Counted from the first letter of the stretch, positions 3,250 to 56,708 are shown. The stretch is 64,000 nucleotides of DNA from Candidatus Humimicrobiaceae bacterium (GCA_035530555.1 DATKUR010000006.1:31673-95672), one strand, 5' to 3'. Numbers and translations: made by a program. The notes: a model not told the origin generated them from the letters alone.

Positions 3250-3313
3250 CCTCCACACCTGTCTTAATTGTAAAAAAATTAAAAGATACTCATTCTTAAT
3301 ACAGGTGTGGAGG
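3250..3313. repeat. inverted repeat with 13-bp perfect arms around a 38-nt AT-rich loop
   Basis: cctccacacctgt (3250-3262) is the exact reverse complement of acaggtgtggagg (3301-3313). It lies between the stop of the 3373..4071 gene and the 23S promoter. No T-run follows on the minus strand. Confidence 0.7.
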
Positions 3314-3372: not shown

Positions 3373-4071
3373 TTAGCCTTTTAGTTTCTTTCTTATATCC
3401 TGTGCTATTTCGGCAGCCACATCTTTTCCGCCAAGACCAAAGGCAATAGCCAACATAGCAACTATTCCTACAAAAGCAATCTTAATCAATTCGAAAACCC
3501 AATCTGCCCAGTCAAACTTCAATTGCTGGAAAACAGCCAAAATGGCAAAAATCCAAATAGCCCATTTAATAATCGCCCCTACCAGATGACCATAACCTAC
3601 TTTAATGCTCTCCACGGCTGCTCTAATCACTTTTTCTACAATATCAGCTATAATAACGGCTACTACAAAAATAAGGGCAGCTACAATAACATTCGGAAGA
3701 TAACCCAAAATAGCTCCCAGTAAGTCCTTGAATGCCCCAAACGGTTGTCCTAAAGCTCCAACAGCTGCGTAAAGAAAAGTAATCACCAAAATCCATTTAA
3801 CAATAGCGCCGATAAAATCTGAGGGACTAATCTTCATCTCAGCTTTTTCTAAAGCCGTTTTCCACCCAGTCCTTTCAAAGAATTGATTTAATTTTATTCT
3901 GGTTAAGATCTCAGCCACTAATTTTCCAACGATAACCGCAAAAATCCAACCAATAAGGAAGATAATAATTGCGGCAACTAAGCCGGGAACGAAATTCAAA
4001 AACCCATCCCAGAGTTTCAATAAAGCCATAGTTGTTGTTTCGGCCCAGTTTTCTATCCAGTTTTCAAACAT
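3373..4071 (-). CDS. multi-pass membrane protein with repeated TM-helix units (conserved-TM-helix / mechanosensitive-channel-related type)
   Basis: 232-aa ORF made of several similar hydrophobic helices (e.g. LVAAIIIFLIGWIFAVIVGKLVAEIL and IVAALIFVVAVIIADIVEKVIRA). The family was assigned from memory only. Confidence 0.45.
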   Translation of the reverse strand: MFENWIENWAETTTMALLKLWDGFLNFVPGLVAAIIIFLIGWIFAVIVGKLVAEILTRIKLNQFFERTGWKTALEKAEMKISPSDFIGAIVKWILVITFLYAAVGALGQPFGAFKDLLGAILGYLPNVIVAALIFVVAVIIADIVEKVIRAAVESIKVGYGHLVGAIIKWAIWIFAILAVFQQLKFDWADWVFELIKIAFVGIVAMLAIAFGLGGKDVAAEIAQDIRKKLKG

Positions 4072-4370: not shown

Positions 4371-4445
4371 TGGTGGGCGCGGAAGGAGTTGAACCTTCCA
4401 CCTCTTCTTTATCAGAGAAGCGTTCTACCGCTGAACTACGCGCCC
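4371..4445 (-). tRNA. tRNA-Ile (GAU), CCA encoded
   Basis: The reverse complement is GGGCGCGTAGTTCAGCGGTAGAACGCTTCTCTGATAAAGAAGAGGTGGAAGGTTCAACTCCTTCCGCGCCCACCA, with anticodon loop CTGATAA. Confidence 0.9.
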
Positions 4446-4996
4446 AAGACAAAAAATTCTTTTTTTACCGGGAGACTGCTTATCCTTTTTTTAAAAATAA
4501 CATTCAGTCCTATCTTATCGAAGATGTTCTCCCATTCTTCTTCTGACTTAAAAGAGGCTTTATTGTAATCTCCGATGAGCTTGGTGAAAGAAATTCCGTG
4601 AATCTTACAGAATAAACTTGAAAAAAAATCATCCAACAAGTCTTCGTAAATAATGATTTTACCCTTGGCCGTTCTTTTGGCTTCTTTCAAAAGAACAACG
4701 GGGTCTTCGCTATGATGTAAAACGTAATTAATTAAAACCGTATCAAAGGAATCATCTGGAAAAAGAAGGTGAAAACCATCATAAATTTGAAAAGGAAGCG
4801 AAGAAACCCGGTAATCTTTAATATCTACTCCCAAGACTTCTGCTCGAAAAAAATCTTGAAAGGTCTTCCCAACTATACCGCAACCGCAACCCAGATCGAG
4901 AACCTTCGAACCCTTTTTAATAAAATCTTGGCAATCCAAACACATTTTCTTTGCCGCCAATTTATAAATTGGGTAGAAAGCCCGGTAATGATTCAT
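4436..4996 (-). CDS. class I SAM-dependent methyltransferase
   Basis: 186-aa ORF with motif I VLDLGCGCGIVG. Its last codons overlap the 5' end of tRNA-Ile by about 10 nt. Confidence 0.7.
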   Translation of the reverse strand: MNHYRAFYPIYKLAAKKMCLDCQDFIKKGSKVLDLGCGCGIVGKTFQDFFRAEVLGVDIKDYRVSSLPFQIYDGFHLLFPDDSFDTVLINYVLHHSEDPVVLLKEAKRTAKGKIIIYEDLLDDFFSSLFCKIHGISFTKLIGDYNKASFKSEEEWENIFDKIGLNVIFKKRISSLPVKKEFFVLGA

Positions 4997-5469
4997 TTTC
5001 TAACTTTTGTAAAATTACCGATTATCAAGTCAGGTATCATTTTTCTAAGAGCAGCGCCTTTAAGTTTAATTGAAAAATTATAATCACCGCTATTGAGAAT
5101 GATTTTGGGCAGATTAATCAAGGATTTATCAACAAATGTCGGCACTCTCCATAAATTTCCAAAAGGCGGAATAGCGCCAATTTTTACCCCTTTTAGATTT
5201 TTCTTAATCCAGGCCTCCTTAATAAAACTAATCTTTTTCGTTTTAGCTGTTTTTCCTAACTTTAGAATGTCTAAATTTTTGTTTGCTGGAATCATAACCA
5301 AAGCTACCCTTTTGTCTATTCTCGTCACTAATGTTTTCCCAATCATCTTCTCTGAGACCTTTAAAGTGGCTGCTTTGTCAAAGGCAGTATAAACCGTCCG
5401 GTGCCCAACCACTTCGTATTTTGTCTTTACCTTTTCTAAAAAATTGGAAATTTTTTTGGGAATTTGCAT
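4993..5469 (-). CDS. YbaK/ProX-type aminoacyl-tRNA editing (deacylase) domain protein
   Basis: 158-aa ORF of the right size, with GAIPPFG and SGDYNFSIKL-type motifs typical of YbaK-like domains (recognised from memory). Confidence 0.55.
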   Translation of the reverse strand: MQIPKKISNFLEKVKTKYEVVGHRTVYTAFDKAATLKVSEKMIGKTLVTRIDKRVALVMIPANKNLDILKLGKTAKTKKISFIKEAWIKKNLKGVKIGAIPPFGNLWRVPTFVDKSLINLPKIILNSGDYNFSIKLKGAALRKMIPDLIIGNFTKVRK

Positions 5470-5490
5470 ATTGAAATATTATATCAAAAA

Positions 5491-5515
5491 TAAAAAAGCC
5501 GTCAATCGGCTTTTG
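5491..5515 (-). terminator. intrinsic (bidirectional) terminator downstream of 16S rRNA
   Basis: aaaaaaGCCGtcaatCGGCtttt. In minus sense this is AAAAGCCGattgaCGGCTTTTTT, sitting just after the 16S 3' processing-stem strand. Confidence 0.6.
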
Positions 5516-5519
5516 TCAG

Positions 5520-5543
5520 TTTTTTAGAGTTGCTCCGATAATC
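5520..5543 (-). other. 3' strand of the 16S precursor processing stem (partner at 7255-7278)
   Basis: 5520-5543 (ttttttagagttgctccgataatc) is the reverse complement of 7255-7278 (ataatcggagcaactctaaaaaac). This is the classic long-range stem bracketing an SSU rRNA. Confidence 0.8.
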
Positions 5544-5621
5544 CCCCTTTAAGGTCCGGAGATTAACACCTTAAGGTTGAAAACAGAATTCTCAGTTTTC
5601 AATCCCAGTCGACAAAATTTT

Positions 5622-7184
5622 AAATTAATTGATCCACCGACAGCTTCCGCTACCGGTGCCTTGTTACGACTTCATTCTTGTTACCGACTTTAGCTTGAGC
5701 CCGCCTCAACGGCGGGATTTCGGCTACTGCCGGCTCCCCTAATGTGACGGGCGGTGAGTACAAGCTTCAGGAACGTATTCATCGCCACATAGCTGATTGG
5801 CGATTACTAGCGATTCCAACTTCATGAGGTCGGGTTGCAGACCTCAATCCGAACTGAGACCGGATTTGATGGGATTAGCTCCGCCTTGCGGCTTAGCAAC
5901 CCATTGTTCCGGCCATTGTACCACGTGTGCAGCCCAGGGCATCAAGGGCCACGCTGACTTGGCGTCATCCTCGCCTTCCTCCCGGTTATCCCGGGCAGTT
6001 CCCGGTGACAGATAAAACACAGGGTAAGGGTTGCGCAGGTTTTGGCATCTAAGCATGCACTTCAAAGCACCTGCTGACGACAGCCGTGCAGCACCTGCCC
6101 CAATGTCCTTGTGGGTAGTCCGCCGTTTCTGGCGGATTTCATTGGGGTTTCTAGCCCTGGTAAGGTTCTTCGTTTGTTGTCGAATTGAGCCACATGGTCC
6201 ACCGCTTGTGTGAAGCCCCGTCTATTCCTTTGAGTTTTAGTCTTGCGGCCGTACTTCCCAGGCGGAACACTTAACGCGTTAGCTTCGCCACCTAAAGGGT
6301 CGACACTTCAGATAGCCAGTGTTCATCGTTTAGGGCGTGGACTACCGAGGTATCTAATCTCGTTTGCTCCCCACGCTTTCGTCCTTCAGCGTCAGGACCG
6401 TCCCAGCTGAATGCCTTCGCTTTTGGTGTTCCGGTCGATATCAACGGATTTCACCCCTACACCGACCGTTCCATCAGCCCCTAACGTCCTCTAGCCAGAT
6501 AGTATTCCTGGCACCCCCAAGGTTGAGCCCTGGGTATTTAACCAGAAACTTTCCTGGCCGCCTACGGACCCTTTACGCCCAATAAATCCGGATAACGCTC
6601 GGAGACTCTGTATTACCGCTGCTGCTGGCACAGAGTTTGCACCTCCTTATTCCTCCGTTACTGTCACCCGAAGGTTCTTCACGGAGAAAAGCTCTTTACA
6701 CCCCGAAGGGCTTCTTCGAGCACGCGGCGTCGCTGGTTCAGACTTTCGTCCATTGACCAATATTCTCGACTGCGGCCTCCCGTAGGAGTGCGGACCGTAT
6801 CGCAGTTCCGCCGTTGGGGAACAAGCTCTCACTTCCCCTACCCGTCATCGCCTTGGTAGGCCATTACCCTACCAACTAGCTGATAAGTCGCAGACCAATC
6901 CTCAACCGGTAATCCTTGCGGACACCCTTTACCCACCACTTGCGTGGGGGGACTATCACGAATTAGCCAATCTTTCGACTGGTTATGCGTGTGTTGGGGG
7001 TTTGTATCTACGTGTTACTAACTCGTTTGCCACTCCCCCCATCACTTTGACCTGAATTTTCACGATTAACCTTATTTTTGGTTCCCTCGTTGAATTAAAG
7101 ACAAAGTGATGGGGAGCGTTCGACTTGCATGCCTGATCCACGCCGCCAGCGTTCATCCTGAGCTAGGATCAAACTCTCAAATAA
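5622..7184 (-). rRNA. rrs: 16S ribosomal RNA (about 1.56 kb), with expanded V1 helix and no CCUCC at the 3' end
   Basis: The 5' end reads TTGAGAGTTTGATCCTAGCTCAGGATGAACGCTGGCGGCG (reverse complement of 7141-7184). The 3' end reads AAGTCGTAACAAGGCACCGGTAGCGGAAGCTGTCGGTGGATCAATTAATTT, i.e. helix 45 with a GGAA loop, then GGATCA followed by ATTAATTT instead of CCTCCTTA. Confidence 0.93.
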
Positions 7185-7400
7185 TAGACTTAAGATATAA
7201 GTTACTAGATTAAAGAAATTTTCTAAAACCTTGAGTCTTTAATCTTAAATCTTAATAATCGGAGCAACTCTAAAAAACTAAACGAACGATAGTGAGTTCA
7301 CCGAGCATATAATTTTTTATGTGCTTCGGTTCCATTCTCACTCCGTTCAGATTTGATTTTTAAGGTACTTGCTTTCATCCGTCCAGGCTTTGCACGCCAT

Positions 7401-26514: not shown

Positions 26515-27963
26515 TTAATTTTTTTTCTGACGCAAAAAAGACGGAGTTTCCCAAAATTTCTCTTTTTCTAACATTTCTTCTTCTACTTCCTCGACTTCTT
26601 TTTTTATTTGGAGAGCACTTTTTCTGACTTTTGCTTCGGTTATCTTCTTTTCCTGACTTGGAAAGCTTTCAGGGTTCTCTTTCGGGGCTTCGATTTTAGG
26701 TCGAGGCCTTTTCCTAGGAAATTTCTTTGAGGTCTTTGTTTTTGTTTTTTTTGTCTTCTTTTGGGGCTTCCGTATGGGTTTAACTTTTTTAACCGCCTTG
26801 TTTTGTGGAGTTTTTTTTGAAGGTTCCGGCTTTAGGTTAACTTTTTTGGCAATTTTTCTTTTTTTTATCCTGGGAGGTTTTTTCGCCCGCCCCTTAGATC
26901 TCTTCTTTGGGGTTTTATCAGAAAAAACCTTCGTGACGCAACCGGTTGCAAAAACCGTCGTCTTAATAATATTTTGATGTCCAGTCTCCTTTCTGGAAGA
27001 CAAAGGCTGAATCCCAAAAACAATTTTTGCCTCCGGGTTGACTTTTTCTGAGATAGTTTTGGAAATCTGGTTTACCTCTTCCAATGATATTCCTTTTTCA
27101 CCAATAATATTAAATAAAATCCCTTTGGCCCCTTTGATTCCATAGGGATATAGAGGAGAAATAAGGGCTTTCTCTACCGCATCTTTGGCTGTCCCTTCCT
27201 TTTTGGGAAGAGAAATAGTATTCAAGTATGCCAATCTTCCCTGGCCCTGTAAAACTGTTCTTAAATCGGCGAAATCAATGTTAATTAAACCCGGCTGATA
27301 AATTGTCTCAATTAGCCCGCCTAAGGCCGTAGCTAAGTTTTTATTAATAGAAGAAAGGGCGGCTTTTAAAGGAGTGGTCTTGTCAACAACCTGAAAAATC
27401 CTTTCATTTGGCAAGATAGTAATACTGTTTAACTTCGGCCTTAAGTTGTCTAAGGCCGATTTAGCAATTTCCATTTTCTTTTCTCCTTCAAATTTAAAGG
27501 GTAAAGTAAAAATACCGTAAGTAAGGTTTCCTAAACTCTTTGAGATCTTCGCAAAAATAGGAGCAGCTCCGGAACCGGTCCCTCCGCCCAGAGAGGCAAT
27601 TAAAATGACCAGATCTTGACCCTGTAATATTTTTTTTATTCTTTCTTTTTCATTCTGACCGGCTGTCTCGGCCAATTCAAGATTCATGCCAGTTCCCAAG
27701 CCCCGAGTAAAGCTTTGACCGAAAGGAAAGCGTTCTACTTTTCTGGAAATTTCCTTCAAGGCCTGCATGTCAGTATTGGCAGCAAAAAAACTGGCTCTTT
27801 TTACTCCTTGAGCCAATTCCGAAACAATATTACCGCCTCCCCCGCCAATACCAATCACCCTGATTTTAGTTCTTTTCAGTGTACTAACCTTTTCCACTTC
27901 GCCTTCTTTATCCCCGGCCTTAGACAAAGGTTTTTTAACCTTCTTTTTAAGTTTTTTAGCCAT
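26515..27963 (-). CDS. ftsZ: cell division protein FtsZ with a long Lys-rich linker
   Basis: GIGGGGGN and GGGTGSGAAP tubulin motifs. A basic linker of about 130 aa ends in ETPSFLRQKK, a C-terminal peptide resembling the FtsA-binding motif. Confidence 0.95.
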   Translation of the reverse strand: MAKKLKKKVKKPLSKAGDKEGEVEKVSTLKRTKIRVIGIGGGGGNIVSELAQGVKRASFFAANTDMQALKEISRKVERFPFGQSFTRGLGTGMNLELAETAGQNEKERIKKILQGQDLVILIASLGGGTGSGAAPIFAKISKSLGNLTYGIFTLPFKFEGEKKMEIAKSALDNLRPKLNSITILPNERIFQVVDKTTPLKAALSSINKNLATALGGLIETIYQPGLINIDFADLRTVLQGQGRLAYLNTISLPKKEGTAKDAVEKALISPLYPYGIKGAKGILFNIIGEKGISLEEVNQISKTISEKVNPEAKIVFGIQPLSSRKETGHQNIIKTTVFATGCVTKVFSDKTPKKRSKGRAKKPPRIKKRKIAKKVNLKPEPSKKTPQNKAVKKVKPIRKPQKKTKKTKTKTSKKFPRKRPRPKIEAPKENPESFPSQEKKITEAKVRKSALQIKKEVEEVEEEMLEKEKFWETPSFLRQKKN

Positions 27964-27969
27964 TAATAA

Positions 27970-27998
27970 AATATAAAGCTTTTAAAGTTTAAAGTCAA
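27970..27998 (-). promoter_or_regulatory. promoter abutting the ftsZ start codon (TTGACT-17 nt-TATATT-6 nt-ATG); implies leaderless mRNA
   Basis: The minus-sense sequence reads TTGACTttaaactttaaaagcttTATATTttattaATG. Confidence 0.45.
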
Positions 27999-28039
27999 TG
28001 TGGCTAGGGGTATTGGACGATGTTCGGACCTGTTTTTGT

Positions 28040-28075
28040 TCGTAGAGACAAAAAACCGCTCTCTAAGAAAGCGGT
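28040..28075 (-). terminator. intrinsic terminator after the small membrane peptide gene
   Basis: The minus-sense sequence is ACCGCTTTCTTAGAGAGCGGT followed by TTTTTTGT. Confidence 0.6.
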
Positions 28076-28160
28076 GGGAAATCGTAATTTGATAATTGGG
28101 ACTCCTCAAGCTACTAACTTTCGCCCGAGGAGTCCCCGTGACCCGATTAGGCAAGGCAAT

Positions 28161-28343
28161 CTAACTAACGGATGGGATGAAGACGAATGAGAAAATAGTA
28201 AGAACTACCCCAAATACTATTAGAATGATTGCAGAGGTAGAGCCTTCAAGTAAAATAGTATGTTTCTTATATATCCGGACCCCCATCGCTATGGAGAAGA
28301 TTGCCACTCCCAGAAAAAGAAGATACGCTAGTACTGTAACCAT
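28161..28343 (-). CDS. 60-aa two-TM hydrophobic peptide
   Basis: MVTVLAYLLFLGVAIFSIAMGVRIYKKHTILLEGSTSAIILIVFGVVLTIFSFVFIPSVS. The gene is preceded by a consensus promoter and a strong SD. Confidence 0.6.
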   Translation of the reverse strand: MVTVLAYLLFLGVAIFSIAMGVRIYKKHTILLEGSTSAIILIVFGVVLTIFSFVFIPSVS

Positions 28344-28349
28344 CTCGGT

Positions 28350-28395
28350 TCACCTCCTGCCACACATTATACCATACAAAATATCATTTTGTCAA
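28350..28395 (-). promoter_or_regulatory. consensus promoter (TTGACA-18 nt-TATAAT) plus strong SD (AGGAGGTGA) for the 60-aa peptide gene
   Basis: The minus-sense sequence reads TTGACAaaatgatattttgtatggTATAATgtgtggcAGGAGGTGAaccgagATG. Confidence 0.7.
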
Positions 28396-28404
28396 TGCGA
28401 ACAT

Positions 28405-28634
28405 CTACCAAAAAACCGCCCTTTTAGCGATTAATTTGATGAGTTTATCTTTCGAATAAAGTTCGATGTCCTAGACGGGTACCGGGATTTTTTCTCGAAC
28501 TATTTGTCAAAATATGAGGCGGATCGGTCTCTCGAACCGCGCTCAAGGTAGCTGCGGGGACTCTATTCGAACTATAGCTTCATTTTATGTTCGAAATCCT
28601 GTATTTTTCAGTTCGAATCTCGGAGGGGTCTCTA
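28405..28634 (-). repeat. island repeat copy 1 (segments A+B+C)
   Basis: Aligns with 29385-29627 (copy 2) and, for segments A and B, with 32251-32355 (copy 3, which abuts tRNA-Gln). Contains gctgcgggg, the last 8 nt of tRNA-Gln plus its trailer. Confidence 0.85.
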
Positions 28635-29375
28635 TATTTTAATTATTTCTTTCTGGACCGAACTAGTTATAATCAATCCATAATCTCTAGTTATGTAGCA
28701 ATTTATCTCGCTTCTAATTCCAAAGTTATTCTTTAAATAAAGACCAGGCTCGATGGTAAACAAAATATCTTTCTTTAATCCAGCATTACTTTTTTTGCCA
28801 AAACGAAAATATTTTCCATGGCATTCGTTGATTCCCAAACTATGTCCTAAACCATGAAGAAAGTTATTTTCTAAACCATACTTATCGAAATAATCCCTAA
28901 CCGTCTTATCAATTAATTTAGTTTTGGGAAGCTTTTTTGTCTTTAAATTCTGACGAAGTAATTTCAGAGCAGTTTCTCTTCCTTGAATAACTCTTTTAAA
29001 AATCTTTTTTATATCTTGTGGGATGTTTTTACCACAATAACCCATCCAGGTAATATCTGCGAAAGGAGCATCTTTTTCATTAATTCTTGCCCAAATATCA
29101 ATCAATACCAAATCGTTCTTTTTTATAATCTTAGAACTATTTTTCTGAGGAAAGTAATGGACTAAAGATGTATTTTTGTCTGCAGCTACAATTGGCAATG
29201 AATATCTTTTTTCGGCAACAAGGTTCTCTTTCTTAAATTCTGATAATATAAACTGACTGACCTTATATTCGGAGACCTTACCAAGATTATTTTTGATAAA
29301 ACCAAATGCTCTATTTTTAACCTGATCCAATCTTTCAGCTGCAATCTTATGTTGTTTAATTTGGTCTTTTGTCAT
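28632..29375 (-). CDS. M24-family metallopeptidase (Xaa-Pro/methionine aminopeptidase fold)
   Basis: 247-aa ORF with HGLGHSLG and EPGLY-type metal-ligand motifs. Confidence 0.7.
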   Translation of the reverse strand: MTKDQIKQHKIAAERLDQVKNRAFGFIKNNLGKVSEYKVSQFILSEFKKENLVAEKRYSLPIVAADKNTSLVHYFPQKNSSKIIKKNDLVLIDIWARINEKDAPFADITWMGYCGKNIPQDIKKIFKRVIQGRETALKLLRQNLKTKKLPKTKLIDKTVRDYFDKYGLENNFLHGLGHSLGINECHGKYFRFGKKSNAGLKKDILFTIEPGLYLKNNFGIRSEINCYITRDYGLIITSSVQKEIIKI

Positions 29376-29384
29376 AGTTTTACC

Positions 29385-29627
29385 CTACCAAAAAAGCGCC
29401 ATTTTGGCGATTAGTTGGTGAGGTTTTCTCCCGAATAAAGTTCGGCATCCTAGATGGGTATGGGTTTAGGACGTCCTGGACCCGTCAAGAAATTAGCTTC
29501 AAAATAGGCCTCTCGGTCGGCCTCGATACTGCGCTGACTGGTGCTGCCGCGCTGCGACTCGAACTATAGCTTCATTTTATGTTCGAAATCCTGTATTTTT
29601 CAGTTCGAATCCCAGGCGGGTGTTCTA
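29385..29627 (-). repeat. island repeat copy 2 (A, divergent B, C)
   Basis: The 52 nt cgaactatagcttcattttatgttcgaaatcctgtatttttcagttcgaatc are identical to copy 1. Segment A is similar by eye, and the middle segment is divergent and GC-rich. Confidence 0.85.
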
Positions 29628-29633
29628 ATTTTG

Positions 29634-30613: not shown

Positions 30614-30628
30614 TAGCTTGCGGAGAGA

Positions 30629-30758
30629 CTTCGGGAGAAACCCAGACACCGAGCCATAGTTGTCGTTGGCATTGTCGAACCAGTTCGTGTCGAACTTGAC
30701 CTTGCCGTCGTTGAAGTTGAAGTAGGGCGCGTTCGAGAAATCGCCATCAGCATCAGGT
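30629..30758 (-). repeat. DGR template repeat (TR)
   Basis: Gap-free 130-bp alignment to 31168-31297. All 17 differences are at TR sense-strand adenines. The TR is noncoding: an in-frame TAA lies immediately 5' of the homology. Confidence 0.9.
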
Positions 30759-31164: not shown

Positions 31165-32031
31165 TTACTGCGGGAGAAACCCAGACACCGAGCCATAGAC
31201 GTCGTGGGCACTGCCGAACCAGCTCGCGCCGAACTCGACCTCGCCGTCGTAGAAGTAGAAGCAGGGCGCGTCCGAGAAACCGCCAACAGCATCAGGTGCG
31301 TACTCGTCGCCAGCACAGTCGATCCAGAGATCGTCATAATGCTGGAGTCGCTCGGGATGGGTCAGTAATATGCACCCGATCTCGAATGCGCCGAGTCCAA
31401 ACTCATTGGCCGTAAAGACCTCGCGAGCTCGACGGACACTGCGGCCCCTGTGACGGAAACCGAACTGAGCAGCCACGACCAGAATGTCGTAGCCCTTCTG
31501 CTGTTCAGCCAGCGTTTCGAGCTTCTTTACTGTACGCTCGTGCTGTCGGAGATATTGCACTCCGAGCTTGCCTTCGCGCCAGTTGTAGAACTTGCCCTTG
31601 CGCTGCTTCTTAATCAGCTCCAGCACTTTCTCCACTGCTTCATTGTAGGTCTTGGCGACCGACTGCCACTTCGGGATGGCGAACCATCCTTCAGCATTCG
31701 GCGGAAGCGGTTGCTCGACGAGCTTTTCATCGGCGAAGCCGATGCCAGGAAGGAGCTGACGCAGAATGTTGGTCTGCTCTGTGATGCCTTTGGGCTTGTA
31801 GCCCGACAGGTATCCGTATCTGGACTCCACTTCCTCGTCCGCAAACTGGTTGCTCACAGAGAGCTCCCTGATGCCAGCAATGATGCGAGCTTGAAACTCG
31901 TCACCATTCTCGATGAGCTTCTGAAGCCCATCCTTGTCGAGACCGACTTCGGCTAATGCCTTGTCGGCGGCATCCTCGACAAACCTCTTGTACTGCTTTG
32001 TCTGTCCTGACGTGATCGATTTTGTCGTCAT
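31165..32031 (-). CDS. DGR variable (target) protein, 288 aa, family unknown
   Basis: Long ORF that is GC-rich relative to its surroundings. Its last 43 codons form the VR. A strong SD GGAGGTGA lies 6 nt upstream of the ATG. Confidence 0.85.
   Translation of the reverse strand: MTTKSITSGQTKQYKRFVEDAADKALAEVGLDKDGLQKLIENGDEFQARIIAGIRELSVSNQFADEEVESRYGYLSGYKPKGITEQTNILRQLLPGIGFADEKLVEQPLPPNAEGWFAIPKWQSVAKTYNEAVEKVLELIKKQRKGKFYNWREGKLGVQYLRQHERTVKKLETLAEQQKGYDILVVAAQFGFRHRGRSVRRAREVFTANEFGLGAFEIGCILLTHPERLQHYDDLWIDCAGDEYAPDAVGGFSDAPCFYFYDGEVEFGASWFGSAHDVYGSVSGFLPQ
31168..31297 (-). repeat. DGR variable repeat (VR) at the 3' end of the target gene
   Basis: See the TR entry. The VR encodes PDAVGGFSDAPCFYFYDGEVEFGASWFGSAHDVYGSVSGFLPQ*, whereas the TR would encode PDADGDFSNAPYFNFNDGKVKFDTNWFDNANDNYGSVSGFLPK. 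Confidence 0.9.
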
Positions 32032-32093
32032 CGTCTATCACCTCCATATAGTTTTTTTACCCGAATCGCTCGGGCTTGACGGCTTGTCTCCCA

Positions 32094-32250: not shown

Positions 32251-32355
32251 ATAAAAGTTCGATGTCCTAGCGGGGTACCGGAATAGTTTTCTCGAACTTT
32301 TTCAAAAATATGAGGCGGATCGGTCTCTCGAACCGCGCTCAAGGTAGCTGCGGGG
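32251..32355 (-). repeat. island repeat copy 3 (A+B), the native trailer of tRNA-Gln
   Basis: ataaaagttcgatgtcctagcggggtaccgg...tatgaggcggatcggtctctcgaaccgcgctcaaggtagctgcgggg aligns with copy 1. Confidence 0.85.
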
Positions 32356-32418
32356 CCTGGACTCGAACCAGGATACCATCTTCCAGAGAGATGTGTCCTA
32401 CCATTAGACGACCCCGCA
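32348..32418 (-). tRNA. tRNA-Gln (CUG)
   Basis: The reverse complement is TGCGGGGTCGTCTAATGGTAGGACACATCTCTCTGGAAGATGGTATCCTGGTTCGAGTCCAGGCCCCGCAG. It has a U1:A72 pair and the anticodon loop CTCTGGA. Confidence 0.85.
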
Positions 32419-39597: not shown

Positions 39598-39660
39598 ATT
39601 TCAATCTTAATATTTTTTGGTCTTCTTTACAAATCTCTAAATTTTGATATTATCTTTCTT

Positions 39661-39692
39661 AGGAGGAAAAGCTATTTAAAAAGGAGGTAAAT
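39661..39692 (+). promoter_or_regulatory. double Shine-Dalgarno-like leader (TAGGAGGA ... AAGGAGGT-6 nt-ATG)
   Basis: The sequence is ttaggaggaaaagctatttaaaaaggaggtaaatATG. Confidence 0.6.
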
Positions 39693-40742
39693 ATGGAGAA
39701 ATTAGTACACATTGTCGAAACGCAACAGTTCACGGTGCCCTGGTTGGAGGAAGATTTCTATCCCTTGGTCGATGAAATGGAAGAATTGCTCAAAAAAAGA
39801 GAAAAAGGCCTAATAGGCTCTCCAGTGAAACCCGCTCTTACCGGAAAAAACGTCGCTGAGTTTTTTTACGGAGCCAGCACACGAACAAGACTTAGTTTCC
39901 AATTTGCTGCCCACGAATTAGGCGCAATGAACTTTCCTACGGATAACGCCGGAATTAGTTCCTCGGCTGCCAAAACAGAAAGCCTTCGTGATTCAATTCA
40001 AGTACTTTCTAGCTACCCTACTATTGACGTCATTGTTGTAAGAACCAAGATCACTCAAGAAAAAACAGAGGAATTAAATCTAAAAGAGGCTGTTCCTTAT
40101 TCCAGCAAACCCGTTATCAGTGGAGGCGACAGAAACCAGCAACACCCCACGCAAACACTGATTGACCTTTATACTATCCGAAAGGAAAAAGGTCGCATTG
40201 CTGATCTGACAATCGGCTTGGGTGGAGACGTCGGCGGCAGCCGAACAGTCAGGTCTCTCATCTATGTGGCCGCCAAATATCCTGGGACAAAATTTATCAT
40301 TATCTCACCCCAGATGGCCCAATTACCAGACGACCTCAAAGACCACCTGCGAAAACACGGCATTGAGTTTCAAGAAGTCTATGATGTAAGAGAAGTAGCT
40401 CATTTACTCGATGTTTATTATGTGGTCAGAGTCCAAACGAAGGAAGGAGATAAAAATACGAAAGATTTGGACGCGAGAGATCGGCTCTTAAAATATGGAC
40501 CCCCCGCTTTCTGGGCAGCAAACCAGGAGACACTAAAACTCCTACCTCGCAAGGCAATTATTATACATCCGTTGCCTCGGACGCAAGATGAGCTGCCTTA
40601 CGAAACCGATAAAGATCCTCGGTCAGTTTACTTCAAACAAGCCCGATATGGCGAGGCAGTCAGAATGGCTCTGTTACTAACGGTCTTAAAGGAACCCTAC
40701 CGAACAAAATTTCTCCGAAAGACAAACCCGCTAAGCTTTTAG
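39693..40742 (+). CDS. pyrB: aspartate carbamoyltransferase-like protein (ATCase/OTCase fold)
   Basis: Motifs STRTR, HPTQ and HPLPR. At 349 aa it is somewhat longer than a typical PyrB. Confidence 0.65.
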   Translation: MEKLVHIVETQQFTVPWLEEDFYPLVDEMEELLKKREKGLIGSPVKPALTGKNVAEFFYGASTRTRLSFQFAAHELGAMNFPTDNAGISSSAAKTESLRDSIQVLSSYPTIDVIVVRTKITQEKTEELNLKEAVPYSSKPVISGGDRNQQHPTQTLIDLYTIRKEKGRIADLTIGLGGDVGGSRTVRSLIYVAAKYPGTKFIIISPQMAQLPDDLKDHLRKHGIEFQEVYDVREVAHLLDVYYVVRVQTKEGDKNTKDLDARDRLLKYGPPAFWAANQETLKLLPRKAIIIHPLPRTQDELPYETDKDPRSVYFKQARYGEAVRMALLLTVLKEPYRTKFLRKTNPLSF

Positions 40743-41260: not shown

Positions 41261-41701
41261 TTAGAGTAATTTTTGAGTTTGAGCTTGGCTATTCAAGGCT
41301 TCGTTAACCAATCTGTCGGCGGCCTGATTTCTTTGGCGAGAAATTAATTTAAATTTAACTTTTTTAAAATCTAGTTTGACATTCCAAGCAACAATAAATA
41401 GGTGCTGGATTCTTGGCTCTAAAACTTTGTATTCTCCATTTAATTGCTTAATCAATAACTCAGAATCCGATTTTAATTCAATCTCGGAATTCTTCGCTAA
41501 TTTTTTACCAAAAAGAGCTTTAAATTTTCTTAGAGCAAGGATCACAGCCTGATATTCGGCCTCATTATTGGTTGTTTCTCCCAAATACTCTGAGTAGTTT
41601 TTAATTATCTGGTCCTTTTCATTACAAAAAACAAATCCGGCCGCGGCCGGCCCCGGATTACCCCTTGAGCCGCCATCAGTATAAATAATTATCTTTTTCA
41701 T
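41261..41701 (-). CDS. rnhA: ribonuclease HI
   Basis: IIIYTDGGSRGNPGPAAAGFV and NNEAEYQAVILAL, the RNase H type 1 motifs. Confidence 0.8.
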   Translation of the reverse strand: MKKIIIYTDGGSRGNPGPAAAGFVFCNEKDQIIKNYSEYLGETTNNEAEYQAVILALRKFKALFGKKLAKNSEIELKSDSELLIKQLNGEYKVLEPRIQHLFIVAWNVKLDFKKVKFKLISRQRNQAADRLVNEALNSQAQTQKLL

Positions 41702-47956: not shown

Positions 47957-48844
47957 TTATTTCCGACGCCACTCCAGCCAAGCCACTAAAATCGGGCTAA
48001 CCAAGAAGAAGGAAGAATAAGTGCCCGCAATTATTCCTAAAATCAGAACCAAAGCGAAATATTTTAAGGTTTCTCCGCCTAAAAAGAAAATGGCTATCAA
48101 AACAAAAAGGGTAGTCAAAGAGGTATTTAGACAACGCGCCAGGGTTTGATTTAAAGACTTATCTACGGTCTCAGTAAAAGTGCTATCAACTCTCTTTAAT
48201 AAATTTTCTCTAATCCTGTCAAAAACCACTACCGTGTTATTAATTGAATACCCTAAAACCATAAGGAGGGCAATAATAACCGAGATGGTAATCTGAACCC
48301 CGTAAAATTCTCCCAAAATTGCTAAAATACCTATCGGGATTAAAACGTCATGAAAAAGAGCCAAAAGAGAAGTTAAACCATATTGCCAGGAACTGATCGG
48401 TCTTTGGATTTTCCGAAAACTGAAAGCAATATATAGGACTATTGCTAAAAGGGATAGGATCACGACAATTGTCGTTTTTTCTCTCAGTTCCCGGCCAACC
48501 ACCGGACCAATTGATTCAAAGCGCAGCTCCTCTACCTGGTAACTCTCTTTCAAAATCCCTAAAACTTGCTGGTGAGTTCCTTCGTCAATCTCTTGCATCC
48601 TGATGAGCAATCCGTTGGAATCGGTCGGTTGAACAAAAACCGGACCAACAACATCGTTTAAGACCTGTCTCACTGCCTCAATAGCGGGACGTTCCCCTTC
48701 ATATTTTATCTCTAAAATACTTCCTCCGGTAAAATCAATTCCCGGCTTCAAGCCGAAAACACCAAGACAAGTCAAACTCCCTAAAACTAAAATTCCCGAT
48801 AAGATGAAATAAATTTTGCGATATTTGAGAAAAGGGGTCTTCAT
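47957..48844 (-). CDS. secF: protein translocase subunit SecF
   Basis: GIDFTGGS, six-TM topology, and an RND-like C-terminal half. Confidence 0.88.
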
Positions 48845-49992
48845 GATAATCTCAATAATTTTTTAGTTTTGTCAGTTTTTTCCCAGGTGAATTCCGGGCC
48901 TTTTCTGCCAAAATGGCCAAAAATTGAGGTTTTCCGATAGATTGGCCGAAGCAAATTCAGCTCTTTAATAATCCCGCCCGGCGACAAATCAAAAGCCTGA
49001 GGAATAATTTTAAATAACTTTTCTTCCGAGACTTTAGCTGTGCCAAAAGTATCAACACCAAGTTCAGTCGGCTTTAAGCCGCCGATTACATAAGACATTC
49101 TGACTTGACATCTGTTTGCCAAACCGGCAGCCACGATATTTTTGGCAATATATCTTGTCATATAAGCGGCTGATCTGTCTACTTTGGTCGGATCTTTGCC
49201 GGAAAATGAGCCCCCGCCGACCGGAAAGCCGACGCCGTAATTGTCAACTATAATTTTTCGGCCCGACATCCCGGTATCGGAAACCGGGCCGCAGACAACA
49301 AAACGGCCGGTGTTGTTGATATAATATTTAGTTTTTCTGTCCAAAAATTTCTGACAAACCGGTTTAATGACTTTTTCAATAATATCCTTTCTTAGCCGAG
49401 AAAGAGAAACGCCAGGATCATGACTCGCGGCAATAACTACATTAACCAATCTTTTGGCGACTCCGTTTTCATACTCTAATGTCACTTGTGATTTCCCGTC
49501 CGGCCTCAAATAAGGCAAAATTTCTTTTTTTCTGACCTCGGTCAATTTCATCACCAATTTATGGGCCAGCATTATTGGCAGAGGCATCAATTCCAGAGTT
49601 TCTTTGCAGGCGTAACCAAGGGAACTGCCCTGGTCTCCGGCGCCCTGCTTTTTTGTTCCGGTTTTTCTTATTCCTCGTGCGATATCCGGAGATTGCCCAG
49701 AAATGGTGTTTAAAACCGCCACTGTTCGCCAATCAAAACCGTATTCCGGCTTGGTATAACCAGTATCTCTAATGACTTCTCTGGCTACATTATTAATATC
49801 AACCCAGGTTCTGGTGGTAATTTCTCCGCCAACAATGACATATCCTTTGCTGACAAAAACTTCAGCAGCCACCCGAGCATATTTGTCCTCTTTCAGGATA
49901 ACGTCCAAGATGGCATCGGCAATAGCGTCAGCCAGTTTATCAGGATGTCCGGGAGCAACCGATTCAGCTGTTAAAAATTTTTTTACACCCAT
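48841..49992 (-). CDS. metK: S-adenosylmethionine synthetase
   Basis: [19 protein letters not shown] and [19 protein letters not shown]. Confidence 0.95.
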
Positions 49993-54860: not shown

Positions 54861-55724
54861 TTAAGGTTTCTCCCTAAATACCGTTGAAGAAAAATGAATT
54901 TCTGGAGAATAATAGCTTGTTTTGATGTTCAGTTTTTTATATTTTTTTTCTATCTCTTTAAAACTGATCCTGTCAAAATTGATCTTTTTAGAACCGAAGG
55001 AAAAGGTATGTTCGTCAAAAGGAAAACAGCCGACAAAAGCTTTATGAACCCTGAAAAAGGGGAAAACTTTCTTAATTGTTTCCCTAGACTTTTTAGCAAA
55101 TTTTTCTTTTAAATAAGCGGTCTGAAAAGCAGCCACGCCTTCTTTCTGAAGAGCTTTTAAAACATCTTTGTAAAATTCGGTTTTCCAAAGAACCAATGAT
55201 GGGCCGACAGGATCGGTTGAGTCGTTAATAATAATGTCAAAGTAATTTTTATAATTCCTGACAAACTTTAATGCGTCTTCGTTAAATATCTTCAACCGCT
55301 TATCATTAAAAGCTCCGCGAGAAACCGATGGAAGATATTTTTTTGAAACCTCAATTACTTTTTTATCAATCTCAATGAGATAAATTTCTTTAACCGATTT
55401 GTGTTTTATAACTTCCCTAAGCGCTCCGCCGTCTCCGCCGCCGACAATCAAAGCTCTTTCCGGCCTTTTATGATAAAAAATGGCTGGCTGAACCAGCATT
55501 TCGTGATAAATGGCTTCGTATTTTGTTGAAAGCTGAACTAGACCGTCAAGAGCCAAAATCCGACCGAATTCTTCTGTATCAAAAATCTCGATTTTTTGGA
55601 AATTGCTTTTTCCGGAATAAATTTCTTTTTCAATGACAACGCCCCAAGTAGAGTTCGGAGACTCAGATGGCAACTTAAAGTCTTCAAAAAACCAATTTTT
55701 ACCAAAAAGAAATTTCTTAATCAT
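54861..55724 (-). CDS. speE: spermidine synthase
   Basis: The GGGDGGALREV motif and a 287-aa length. Confidence 0.88.
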   Translation of the reverse strand: MIKKFLFGKNWFFEDFKLPSESPNSTWGVVIEKEIYSGKSNFQKIEIFDTEEFGRILALDGLVQLSTKYEAIYHEMLVQPAIFYHKRPERALIVGGGDGGALREVIKHKSVKEIYLIEIDKKVIEVSKKYLPSVSRGAFNDKRLKIFNEDALKFVRNYKNYFDIIINDSTDPVGPSLVLWKTEFYKDVLKALQKEGVAAFQTAYLKEKFAKKSRETIKKVFPFFRVHKAFVGCFPFDEHTFSFGSKKINFDRISFKEIEKKYKKLNIKTSYYSPEIHFSSTVFREKP

Positions 55725-55818: not shown

Positions 55819-56223
55819 TTATTCTTTTCCAGTAATTTTTCCTCTTGTTATTTCTTTTATCTCAACTCTTGTAGGTCTAAATTCTCTTTTAAAATATTCC
55901 AAAGCTCTACGGGGCATGCCTTTACATCCACAAGTAAAAATATCAATTGCCAAATAATTCATTTCCGGCCAGGAATGCAAGGCAATATGGCTTTCAGCCA
56001 ACAAAATAACTCCGGTTATCCCTTGGGGTAAAAACTTATTTACTAAAACTTTTAAAGGAGTGTTTTTAGCTTTCTTTGCTGCGGTAATCAAAATTTTTTT
56101 TAGTTCTTTCGGGTTCTTAATATCTTTTCCATGCCAAAATTCGGCGAGCAGGTGAACGCCGGCGTATTTCTGGTTTTTCTTCTGAGGGATCCATAAAGTG
56201 GATCTCTTTGTTTTTTGAAGCAT
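55819..56223 (-). CDS. speH: S-adenosylmethionine decarboxylase proenzyme (class 1, SpeH type)
   Basis: LLAESHIALHSWPE, the Glu-Ser self-cleavage site context. Confidence 0.85.
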   Translation of the reverse strand: MLQKTKRSTLWIPQKKNQKYAGVHLLAEFWHGKDIKNPKELKKILITAAKKAKNTPLKVLVNKFLPQGITGVILLAESHIALHSWPEMNYLAIDIFTCGCKGMPRRALEYFKREFRPTRVEIKEITRGKITGKE

Positions 56224-56396: not shown

Positions 56397-56708
56397 TCAG
56401 TGGCTTTTTTTCTCAAACAATCTGCAAGAAAAAATATTAATAAAGGCTCGGTTCCAGAGCTCGGAAAAATGACCGCTGAGCAAGCTCGTTTCTATCAGTT
56501 GGACTAAAGAATAACCTGCGGCGTGAGAATCGTCTAATGCAAACCTCTCACAAATTGGTTTACCATATCTCTTAATTTTTAGCAAGCTGCAAAGTTTTTT
56601 TGAGTATTGTAAGATTTTTTTCTTTGACCGGATAATTTTCGGGTCGCAATCCAACAAATCCAAAATTAATTCCTTCCCGTAAATTTTCTTTTTTATACTG
56701 CTAGACAT
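56397..56708 (-). CDS. AdoMetDC-related small protein (divergent paralog)
   Basis: 103-aa ORF with LIETSLLSGHFSE, which resembles the ES-H..H.PE proenzyme motif but has T-S at the cleavage position. Confidence 0.45.
   Translation of the reverse strand: MSSSIKKKIYGKELILDLLDCDPKIIRSKKKILQYSKKLCSLLKIKRYGKPICERFALDDSHAAGYSLVQLIETSLLSGHFSELWNRAFINIFSCRLFEKKSH

Follow-up and report, generated by a model that had tools for sequence, protein, structure and literature searches.

An A/U-only tail in place of the anti-Shine-Dalgarno core in the 16S rRNA gene of a Parcubacteria-like bacterium

How does a ribosome find its start codons if the 16S ribosomal RNA (rRNA) no longer carries the sequence that pairs with the Shine-Dalgarno (SD) motif? 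The question is raised by a 64,000-nucleotide stretch of DNA, hereafter the window, deposited as Candidatus Humimicrobiaceae bacterium (GCA_035530555.1 DATKUR010000006.1:31673-95672), whose 16S rRNA gene was described in an original prediction, made by a model from the sequence, as ending without the anti-SD core CCUCC. We consider, with a probability of about 0.88, that the gene encodes a functional Parcubacteria 16S rRNA in which decay has turned the anti-SD core from CCUCC into AUUAA, leaving a tail of only A and U, that starts are chosen independently of SD, and that the SDs still present were mostly imported; with the core decayed, the ribosomes would thus be unable to choose starts by SD:anti-SD pairing.

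The 3' end of the 16S rRNA gene and the use of SD

The gene scored far above the gathering threshold of the Rfam model RF00177 (1367.5 bits against 50), which makes it a bacterial small-subunit (SSU) rRNA, and it is the only SSU gene that this covariance model (CM) finds in the 64-kb window. Realignment of the 3' part set model positions 1515-1533 (cgGcugGAUcACCUCCUUu) against UCGGUGGAUCAAUUAAUUU, with maximal posterior probability ('*') at every position, such that positions 5622-5640 are exactly the last 19 positions of the model. Helix 45, with its GGAA loop, is intact (CACCGGUAGC-GGAA-GCUGUCGGUG; standard pairs throughout) and the conserved GAUCA is kept, after which the consensus CCUCCUUU is replaced by AUUAAUUU. 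AUUAA, at 5629-5625, occupies the CCUCC site, all four core Cs being substituted, and the 13-nucleotide (nt) tail, GAUCAAUUAAUUU, holds no CCUCC(U), as in the class of genomes described as SD-scarce and without CCUCC. The alignment to an SSU model that had been proposed as a check spans the gene from end to end and bears out the replaced tail: the only 16S gene of the window really has no anti-SD. Elsewhere in the gene, at ~7045-7110 in the helix 6 region, 59 nt are inserted where the bacterial SSU consensus has 3 nt; this insertion accounts for the gene length of 1563 nt and is typical of the rRNA expansions of the Candidate Phyla Radiation (CPR).

The genes of the window show no SD usage. 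Among 56 open reading frames (ORFs), SD 4-mers were present at -20..-4 in 7/56, against 7.7±2.5 in random coding windows, and the duplex energy with ACCUCCUUA, once the three SD genes discussed below were removed, averaged ~-1.0 kcal/mol at -13..-10, weaker than in coding sequence. The same crude pipeline applied to 49 kb of E. coli K-12 as a control gave 46.6% SD 4-mers and a dip of -4.07 kcal/mol at -10. At the scale of the window, neither an SD motif nor a hybridisation signal was seen upstream of the genes, and the claim that tsf, rpsB, rpmE, prfA, fbp, ppsA, acs, gap and ftsZ are not preceded by an SD holds in this gene set. The SD frequency count that the original prediction called for gave no enrichment in the 56 genes covered here.

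The starts are distinguished by composition and structure. GC content drops from 0.39 to 0.26 at the starts, and the mean minimum free energy (MFE) of 40 nt rises from about -5 to -2.3 kcal/mol; A makes up 46-55% at most positions from -12 to -2, U reaches 62% at -1, and G is held to 5-23% from -12 to -1. In four genes a -10-like hexamer begins 13-14 nt before the ATG, as expected from the earlier remark that several promoters abut their start codons. Such a layout would be compatible with transcripts that are leaderless or have leaders of 1-5 nt, and the TATAAT box that precedes the YbaK-like editing-domain gene, 8 nt from its ATG (5469), may be an example of a leaderless or near-leaderless arrangement. 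We propose that start sites would be marked by an A-rich, G-poor and poorly structured region from ~-20 to +20 with U at -1, and that start choice would also be guided by the depletion of upstream AUGs and, in some genes, by a promoter giving a leaderless or near-leaderless transcript.

Could the tail instead be an artefact, or belong to a decaying pseudogene or to one of two rrs genes, while a canonical 16S elsewhere does the SD work? We regard this as very unlikely. Contigs of other assemblies were located by exact match to the protein gene immediately downstream of the 16S, and five of them, independently assembled from different samples and pipelines (JGI 3300031578, JGI 3300031566, ENA ERZ27256808, ENA ERZ27256828 and Logan SRR8554505; loci L121-L125), are 99.9-100% identical to the window and have the same tail; because relatives at 95-97% 16S identity (L127, L232, L163, L242) share it too, the tail is not an artefact. 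The gene is a full-length, high-scoring SSU that has kept helix 45 and is accompanied by a processing stem and a terminator, and the 56 window genes show no SD usage for a canonical copy to serve. A second, canonical rrs, which the original prediction had named as the finding that would overturn it, is not present in the 64-kb window, nor did the metagenome scan described below yield any near-identical 16S with a canonical tail: all of its contigs with at least 95% 16S identity are AT-tailed and 0 have CCTCC. A single rRNA operon is reportedly typical of CPR genomes. What favours a second copy is that our view is limited to one 64-kb window, that a few genes have perfect, well-spaced SDs, and that Alteromonas was reported with two 16S types differing in their anti-SDs (PMC6107228). 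It is extremely improbable, in our estimate, that the anti-SD has been displaced, either by an intervening sequence after GAUCA or by a mature 16S that reaches a CUCC of the trailer. Insertions are frequent in CPR rRNA genes (PMC9297842), as the 59 nt near helix 6 illustrate, and a UCUCC lies ~75 nt downstream of GAUCA, with the candidate CUCC within UAAUCUCCGG (~5553-5556). However, no CCTCC occurs on the rRNA strand from the 16S end until 3309-3313, far past the processing stem, so the earlier statement that none lies between the tail and the 3' strand of that stem is correct; GATCACCTCCTT, searched with up to 3 mismatches, had no match on this strand before 3309, and no GATCACCTCC-like sequence was found on it downstream of the 16S before 3309-3313. 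In the leader-trailer cofold the UCUCC falls in a structured stretch inside the 24-bp processing stem and is therefore probably removed with the trailer, and the genes show no SD usage for such a site. With these searches empty and the UCUCC enclosed by the stem, displacement was rejected. Hardly any credence, finally, can be given to a replacement in which the new tail, AAUUAAUUUAAAAUUUU, pairs with A/U-rich motifs before the starts as a co-evolved variant SD. It is true that the upstream regions are A/U-rich, often with AATTAA-like strings, that AAUUAAUU is self-complementary and that the first 12 nt of the tail are conserved among the closest relatives. Yet duplexes of the actual tail with 10-nt windows averaged ~-0.2 kcal/mol when the 9-mer was used and -0.6 to -1.2 with the 21-mer, and no position showed a dip in comparison with coding or far-upstream windows; the tails of relatives vary widely (ATTAAACTA, TTTATTT, TTTTTTTAAAA, ATTCCAATTTGG) while the profile of the translation initiation region is unchanged; and among 128 taxa no variant anti-SD was matched by a variant SD (Amin et al., PMC6107228). 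Replacement pairing was rejected on the flat energy profile (~-0.2 kcal/mol everywhere), tail-complementary sequence showing no positional enrichment before the starts of the 56 genes.

Lineage of the organism and the probable order of events

Two scans show how widely such tails are distributed. Scan A, which took one genome per species and looked for helix 45 and GAUCA followed by a non-C, returned at least 120 loci; about 105 of 120 loci among the matches listed are Patescibacteria/Paceibacterota-type metagenome-assembled genomes (MAGs) with A/U-only tails, for example ATTAAACTA, ATTAATTT, TTTATTT, TTTTTTTAAAA and ATTCCAATTTGG. The cultured Minisyncoccus archaeiphilus PMX.108 and two Nealsonbacteria MAGs are among the matches listed, and the window 16S is at most 83% identical to any of these matches. 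Scan B searched metagenome contigs for the exact 41-nt helix-45 string of the window, leaving the tail unconstrained, and gave 117 contigs, with CCTCC in 59/117 and absent in 58/117. The four closest with substantial overlap (95.6-96.6% 16S identity) carry ATTAATTTAAAAG and share ATTAATTTAAAA, and a relative at 90% 16S identity carries CTTAATTTAATTTT. Tails of intermediate form also occur (TCTCCTTT, CCTCTTTT, CCTCATTT, CTTAATTT).

Among the fetched loci, the window 16S comes closest (81.7-83.4% identity) to L078, which its record calls 'uncultured Candidatus Saccharibacteria', and to L007 (Paceibacterota) and L115 (Paceibacteria); the protein homologues carry the names Nealsonbacteria or Patescibacteria. 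Judged by 16S identity and by the names of protein homologues, the organism is a tiny-genome bacterium of the Parcubacteria/Paceibacterota (Patescibacteria, CPR), the nearest labelled relatives being Candidatus Nealsonbacteria and Paceibacterota MAGs. The exact proteins of the window (P0001/P0121) are deposited in NCBI as 'Candidatus Humimicrobiaceae bacterium' (Actinomycetota). Since the 16S and the gene content are Parcubacteria-like, this label is probably a mislabel or a mis-binning of a public MAG, and the assignment to that actinomycete family, which conflicts with both, was set aside.

The loss described here is already known as a lineage-wide trait of Parcubacteria, to which the window adds one more member. 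Tsurumaki et al. (2022, RNA 28:1041, PMC9297842) detected the anti-SD motif in just 48% of Parcubacteria, and Campbellbacteria and Wolfebacteria were classed as SD-scarce and without CCUCC (PLoS One 2024, PMC10783764); the loss that the original prediction gave as reported for a minority of bacteria is thus published for this very lineage and typical of it. The anti-SD-less lineages reportedly overlap with a Parcubacteria subgroup that lacks uL1; no rplA lies within the 64 kb of the window, a result that has no bearing on the rest of the genome. Nothing essential differs between the window and the published anti-SD-less Parcubacteria (PMC9297842, PMC10783764), which belong to the same lineage, miss CCUCCU after an intact helix 45 and make no use of SD, only that this organism and its AUUAAUUUAAAA tail are not individually described.

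Did the loss of the anti-SD cause the disuse of SD, or follow it? ORFs beside anti-SD-less 16S genes (165 loci, about 775 ORFs) were compared with those of canonical-tail relatives that share the helix 45 of the window (59 loci, about 218 ORFs). Hybridisation at -10 was -1.09 kcal/mol in the anti-SD-less group (773 ORFs) and -1.32 in the canonical one (218 ORFs), both profiles being flat; A at -11..-3 was 46-54% and 38-58%, respectively, G from -10 to -1 was at most 13% and up to 14%, U was 56-69% at -1, and upstream ATG was depleted in the two groups alike. This part of the radiation is SD-poor regardless of the presence of CCUCC and, because the relatives that keep CCUCC are equally SD-poor, the loss of the anti-SD probably followed the disuse of SD as a consequence rather than a cause. 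The clade would have given up SD-led initiation, selection on the 16S tail would have relaxed, and the tail would then have drifted towards the A+T bias of the genome; relaxed selection followed by such drift seems the most economical account. Most CPR have lost Era, which binds GAUCACCUCC (PMC10582724), the SD-free F. johnsoniae tolerates ablation of the anti-SD after rewiring of a single SD-dependent gene, with some cost in rRNA processing (PMC13000453), and 128 other taxa lack both anti-SD and SD (PMC6107228).

Outside the Parcubacteria, the Weeksellaceae (Chryseobacterium, Elizabethkingia, Riemerella), Blattabacterium, some Mycoplasma and Candidatus Carsonella likewise have no CCUCC, no SD enrichment and no compensating variant SD (Lim 2012; Amin 2018, PMC6107228). 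They are unrelated lineages, mostly host-restricted, whereas in the present case the trait extends to about half of a very large free-environment radiation, in which decayed tails of many kinds and intermediate forms can be seen. The Bacteroidia (F. johnsoniae; Baez 2019, PMC6847099; Naeem 2026, PMC13000453) resemble the window in their SD-less mRNAs with low structure and A-rich upstream regions, in the depletion of AUG near starts and in the rare gene that retains a strong SD, but they keep CCUCC, which is occluded by bS21/bS18/bS6 and used for rpsU autoregulation. As CCUCC is absent here by CM alignment, sequestration of the Bacteroidia type, with CCUCC present and occluded, cannot operate in this organism. 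Mammalian mitochondrial mRNAs are leaderless or have very short leaders. The mammalian mitochondrial 12S rRNA is likewise without an anti-SD (PMC10582724), in an organellar system with dedicated factors that is no relative of the one in the window.

The SD sequences that remain

Three genes, starting at 28343, 32031 and 39693, had been noted as carrying perfect SDs, and these are indeed present, 8-9 nt each (Table 1). SDs of 5 nt or longer precede 3/56 genes against 0.6-1.4 expected, the three perfect ones being far beyond chance, and the genes that bear them are, as far as their sequences tell, compositionally or evolutionarily special. The first belongs to a gene for a peptide of 60 amino acids with two transmembrane (TM) segments. 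Between it and ftsZ, a region of slightly higher GC (27990-28160) contains a long hairpin, GGGACUCCUC...GAGGAGUCCC; the region matched no Rfam family at E<=1 and was not called as a tmRNA. A known RNA element was discarded as a candidate both for the wider odd region (27950-28700) and for the pyrB leader, the Rfam E-value scans being empty.

The second gene differs from the window in composition (GC 0.56 and GC at third codon positions, GC3, 0.69, against about 0.38 and 0.36); it has no Pfam match and more than 2400 homologues, the best 120 of them ranging from 52 to 100% identity, for the most part 70-91%. A second copy of its last 131 nt (31167-31297) lies at 30628-30758, and 17/17 mismatches between the two fall on adenines of the downstream copy, the template, and exclusively at codon positions 1 and 2, which is the signature of the template/variable repeat pair of a diversity-generating retroelement (DGR) target. 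A cognate DGR reverse transcriptase was sought and rejected among the ORFs of the 64-kb window, where the only RVT_3/RNase_H match is an RNase HI-like protein of 146 amino acids (41261..41701), and none lies within 8 kb of the homologue in L243 either. A Nealsonbacteria-type homologue, too, is an insert of one high-GC gene and is preceded by AAGGAG. A repeat of ~100-230 nt is present nearby in three copies (28411-28640, 29390-29632 and 32254-32368), the last of which overlaps the 3' end of tRNA-Gln (32347-32418); a map gene of low GC, a hydrolase gene and the DGR target are enclosed by the copies, and the triplet looks like the product of serial insertions at a tRNA gene.

The third gene, a pyrB-like carbamoyltransferase gene, has ~14 close homologue clusters, all CPR, before identity falls to 40%, and the order MurJ, pyrB, RNase P RNA is conserved in six relatives. 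The 95-nt intergenic region between the divergent murJ and pyrB (39598-39692) includes a promoter (TTTACA-N17-TATTAT), a leader rich in purines and two GGAGG motifs. Over this region the window and L248 share 94% identity, compared with 82-87% for most coding sequence and 16-51% for other gene-to-gene spacers; the core proteins of L248 are 87-92% identical to those of the window, much as in L242, a relative at 95.6% 16S identity that carries the tail of the window. Dual GGA sites of the CsrA type were considered for this leader and dropped, the upstream GGA not being conserved in L246, L250 and L249.

Several points weigh against the reading that we prefer. The SSU census covered the 64-kb window, and a second rrs elsewhere in the genome, though improbable, would have escaped it; the 3' end of the 16S was positioned by CM alignment; starts were called crudely, as the longest ORF, which blurs weak signals; and leaderless initiation is inferred from promoter-like hexamers only, the order of events and the mode of translation of the orphan-SD genes being likewise inferred. 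In addition, AAGGAG(G/A) at -15..-7 is kept in 7/7 pyrB-like orthologues (48-100% amino acid identity) while the rest of the leader diverges, and in the anti-SD-less loci 6-mer SDs precede 2.6% of ORFs, compared with frequencies of 1.1% within coding sequence and 0.6% in far-upstream windows (p=7.5e-4), and the start positions of GGAGG are most frequent at -12..-7 (779 ORFs). A pure model in which SD is meaningless here does not predict this enrichment or the seven pyrB SDs. Selection could instead have kept the residual perfect SDs for a role independent of 16S pairing, such as translation throttling or regulator binding; the conservation in pyrB and the positional GGAGG peak speak for it, as do the identity of the murJ-pyrB intergenic region to that of L248, above most coding sequence, and the finding that anti-SD-ablated ribosomes of F. 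johnsoniae translate the SD-led rpsU mRNA poorly (PMC13000453). We nevertheless hold this to be unlikely. Orphan-SD ORFs are atypical in composition, their GC3 exceeding the locus median by 0.037 (p=6.5e-4), which is what imported genes would show; the five more distant pyrB loci hold several other strong SD motifs (four in L250, L251), and some of those hosts may retain CCUCC; and the conserved intergenic region also houses two divergent promoters. Among the genomes with distant pyrB orthologues are GCA_964568775.1, GCA_043822605.1 and GCA_043813805.1, whose 16S genes lie outside the fetched loci. An orphan-SD gene of Minisyncoccus archaeiphilus is located at L017 6906..7844. In the canonical relatives 6-mer SDs precede 6.0% of ORFs (Fisher p=0.018 against the 2.6%). 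In our reading, most orphan SDs would be the original ribosome-binding sites of mobile genes or of genes gained by horizontal transfer. For the SD of pyrB, either CCUCC is retained in the more distant hosts or the sequence has a pairing-independent role, to which we give a low likelihood. Rather doubtful, too, is the broader conjecture that in anti-SD-less Parcubacteria a small gene set (the pyrB-like gene, the purC-like gene of Minisyncoccus archaeiphilus and DGR target genes being examples) keeps long, well-spaced SDs under purifying selection, which would point to a pairing-independent function or to an unrecognised subpopulation of SD-reading ribosomes.

Surroundings of the gene and meaning of the loss

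The processing stem named in the original prediction is real: leader and trailer of the pre-16S pair through 24 contiguous bp in the cofold (Table 1). Because a terminator-like hairpin lies directly past the stem, the 16S gene would, if the terminator is read correctly, be a transcription unit of its own. Downstream of it, between 2961 and 5622, protein genes interrupt the rRNA operon: the order is 16S, terminator, YbaK-like editing-domain gene, methyltransferase gene, tRNA-Ile, tRNA-Ala, a gene for an MscS-type TM protein, and 23S. The pair of editing-domain and methyltransferase genes after the 16S is also found in L007, L127, L163, L170 and L242 (to 83% 16S identity).

Table 1. Coordinates of the 16S rRNA gene, its processing elements, neighbouring genes and the perfect SDs in the window
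Feature	Position	Strand	Basis or detail
16S rRNA gene, full length	5622..7184	-	Rfam RF00177, model positions 1-1533, 1367.5 bits
Helix 45, intact, GGAA loop	5635..5658	-	CM alignment
GAUCA ahead of the anti-SD position	5630..5634	-	CM alignment and sequence
3' tail AUUAAUUUA where CCUCCUUUA is expected	5621..5629	-	CM alignment; identical in L121-L125
Pre-16S processing stem, 5' strand	7258..7279	-	Leader-trailer cofold, pairing 7279-7258 with 5539-5518
Pre-16S processing stem, 3' strand	5518..5539	-	Leader-trailer cofold
Trailer element	5577..5613	-	GTCGAC (5613-5608), then hairpin UUGAAAAC/GUUUUCAA (5602-5577); sequence, cofold
Terminator-like hairpin and T-run	5492..5510	-	Sequence and fold
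TATAAT box of the YbaK-like gene	5478..5483	-	Sequence
YbaK-like editing-domain gene	4993..5469		
Methyltransferase gene	4436..4996		
MscS-type TM protein gene	3373..4071		
Perfect 9-nt SD AGGAGGUGA	28350..28358	-	6 nt before the ATG of the two-TM peptide gene
Two-TM peptide gene	28164..28343		60 amino acids
Perfect 9-nt SD GGAGGUGAU	32037..32045	-	Before the DGR variable protein gene
DGR variable protein gene	31165..32031		
Perfect SD AAGGAGGU	39681..39688	+	Before the pyrB-like gene
pyrB-like carbamoyltransferase gene	39693..40742		

In the trailer, a motif GTCGA(C)...(G)TTGAA...GAGAAT, ~15-25 nt past GAUCA, recurs in many Parcubacteria with quite different tails (carriers include L009, L045, L056, L088, L115, L127 and L163). 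It had no Rfam family match, and the recurrent hairpin may be a conserved element of pre-16S processing. The tail itself also pairs within the precursor of canonical relatives, forming a hairpin with the first bases of the trailer (CUCC..GGAG; CCUCCUUUCUAGGGAG; mean MFE -5.5 against -0.9 for shuffles). Since some variants keep this hairpin through compensatory changes (CCUCU/AGAGG, UAUCC/GGAUA, UUCC/GGAA; loci L126-L242 and L001-L120), the tail would seem to be constrained within the pre-rRNA, apart from any binding of mRNA; rRNA processing was impaired upon anti-SD ablation in F. johnsoniae (PMC13000453). In AT-only tails like that of the window the hairpin is lost, and as a constraint on this tail it was rejected. 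Far from the rRNA genes, two neighbouring ORFs (55819-56223 and 56397-56708) both match the S-adenosylmethionine decarboxylase family, adjoin spermidine synthase (54861..55724) and lie near S-adenosylmethionine synthetase (48841..49992); they could be a duplicated or split speD.

What goes beyond the literature that we found is modest: the relatives that retain CCUCC are equally SD-poor, and the anti-SD-less genomes hold a small residue of strong SDs in the correct position. The relatives that keep CCUCC and yet are SD-poor, together with the intermediate tails and the compensated hairpins, may be the most useful new piece on how an 'invariant' rRNA element is lost, and the comparative result fits the 2026 ablation experiments in F. 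johnsoniae. In practice, gene finders that train a model of the ribosome-binding site would mis-start genes here, and both these genes in E. coli and SD-led genes in such hosts would misbehave in heterologous expression. Universal 3'-end 16S primers that include AAGGAGGTGATCC would fail to bind. One concrete genome documents the natural end-state of SD-independent initiation, in which the anti-SD is physically lost from a bacterial ribosome, and it belongs to a radiation to which much of the diversity of bacteria may be due.

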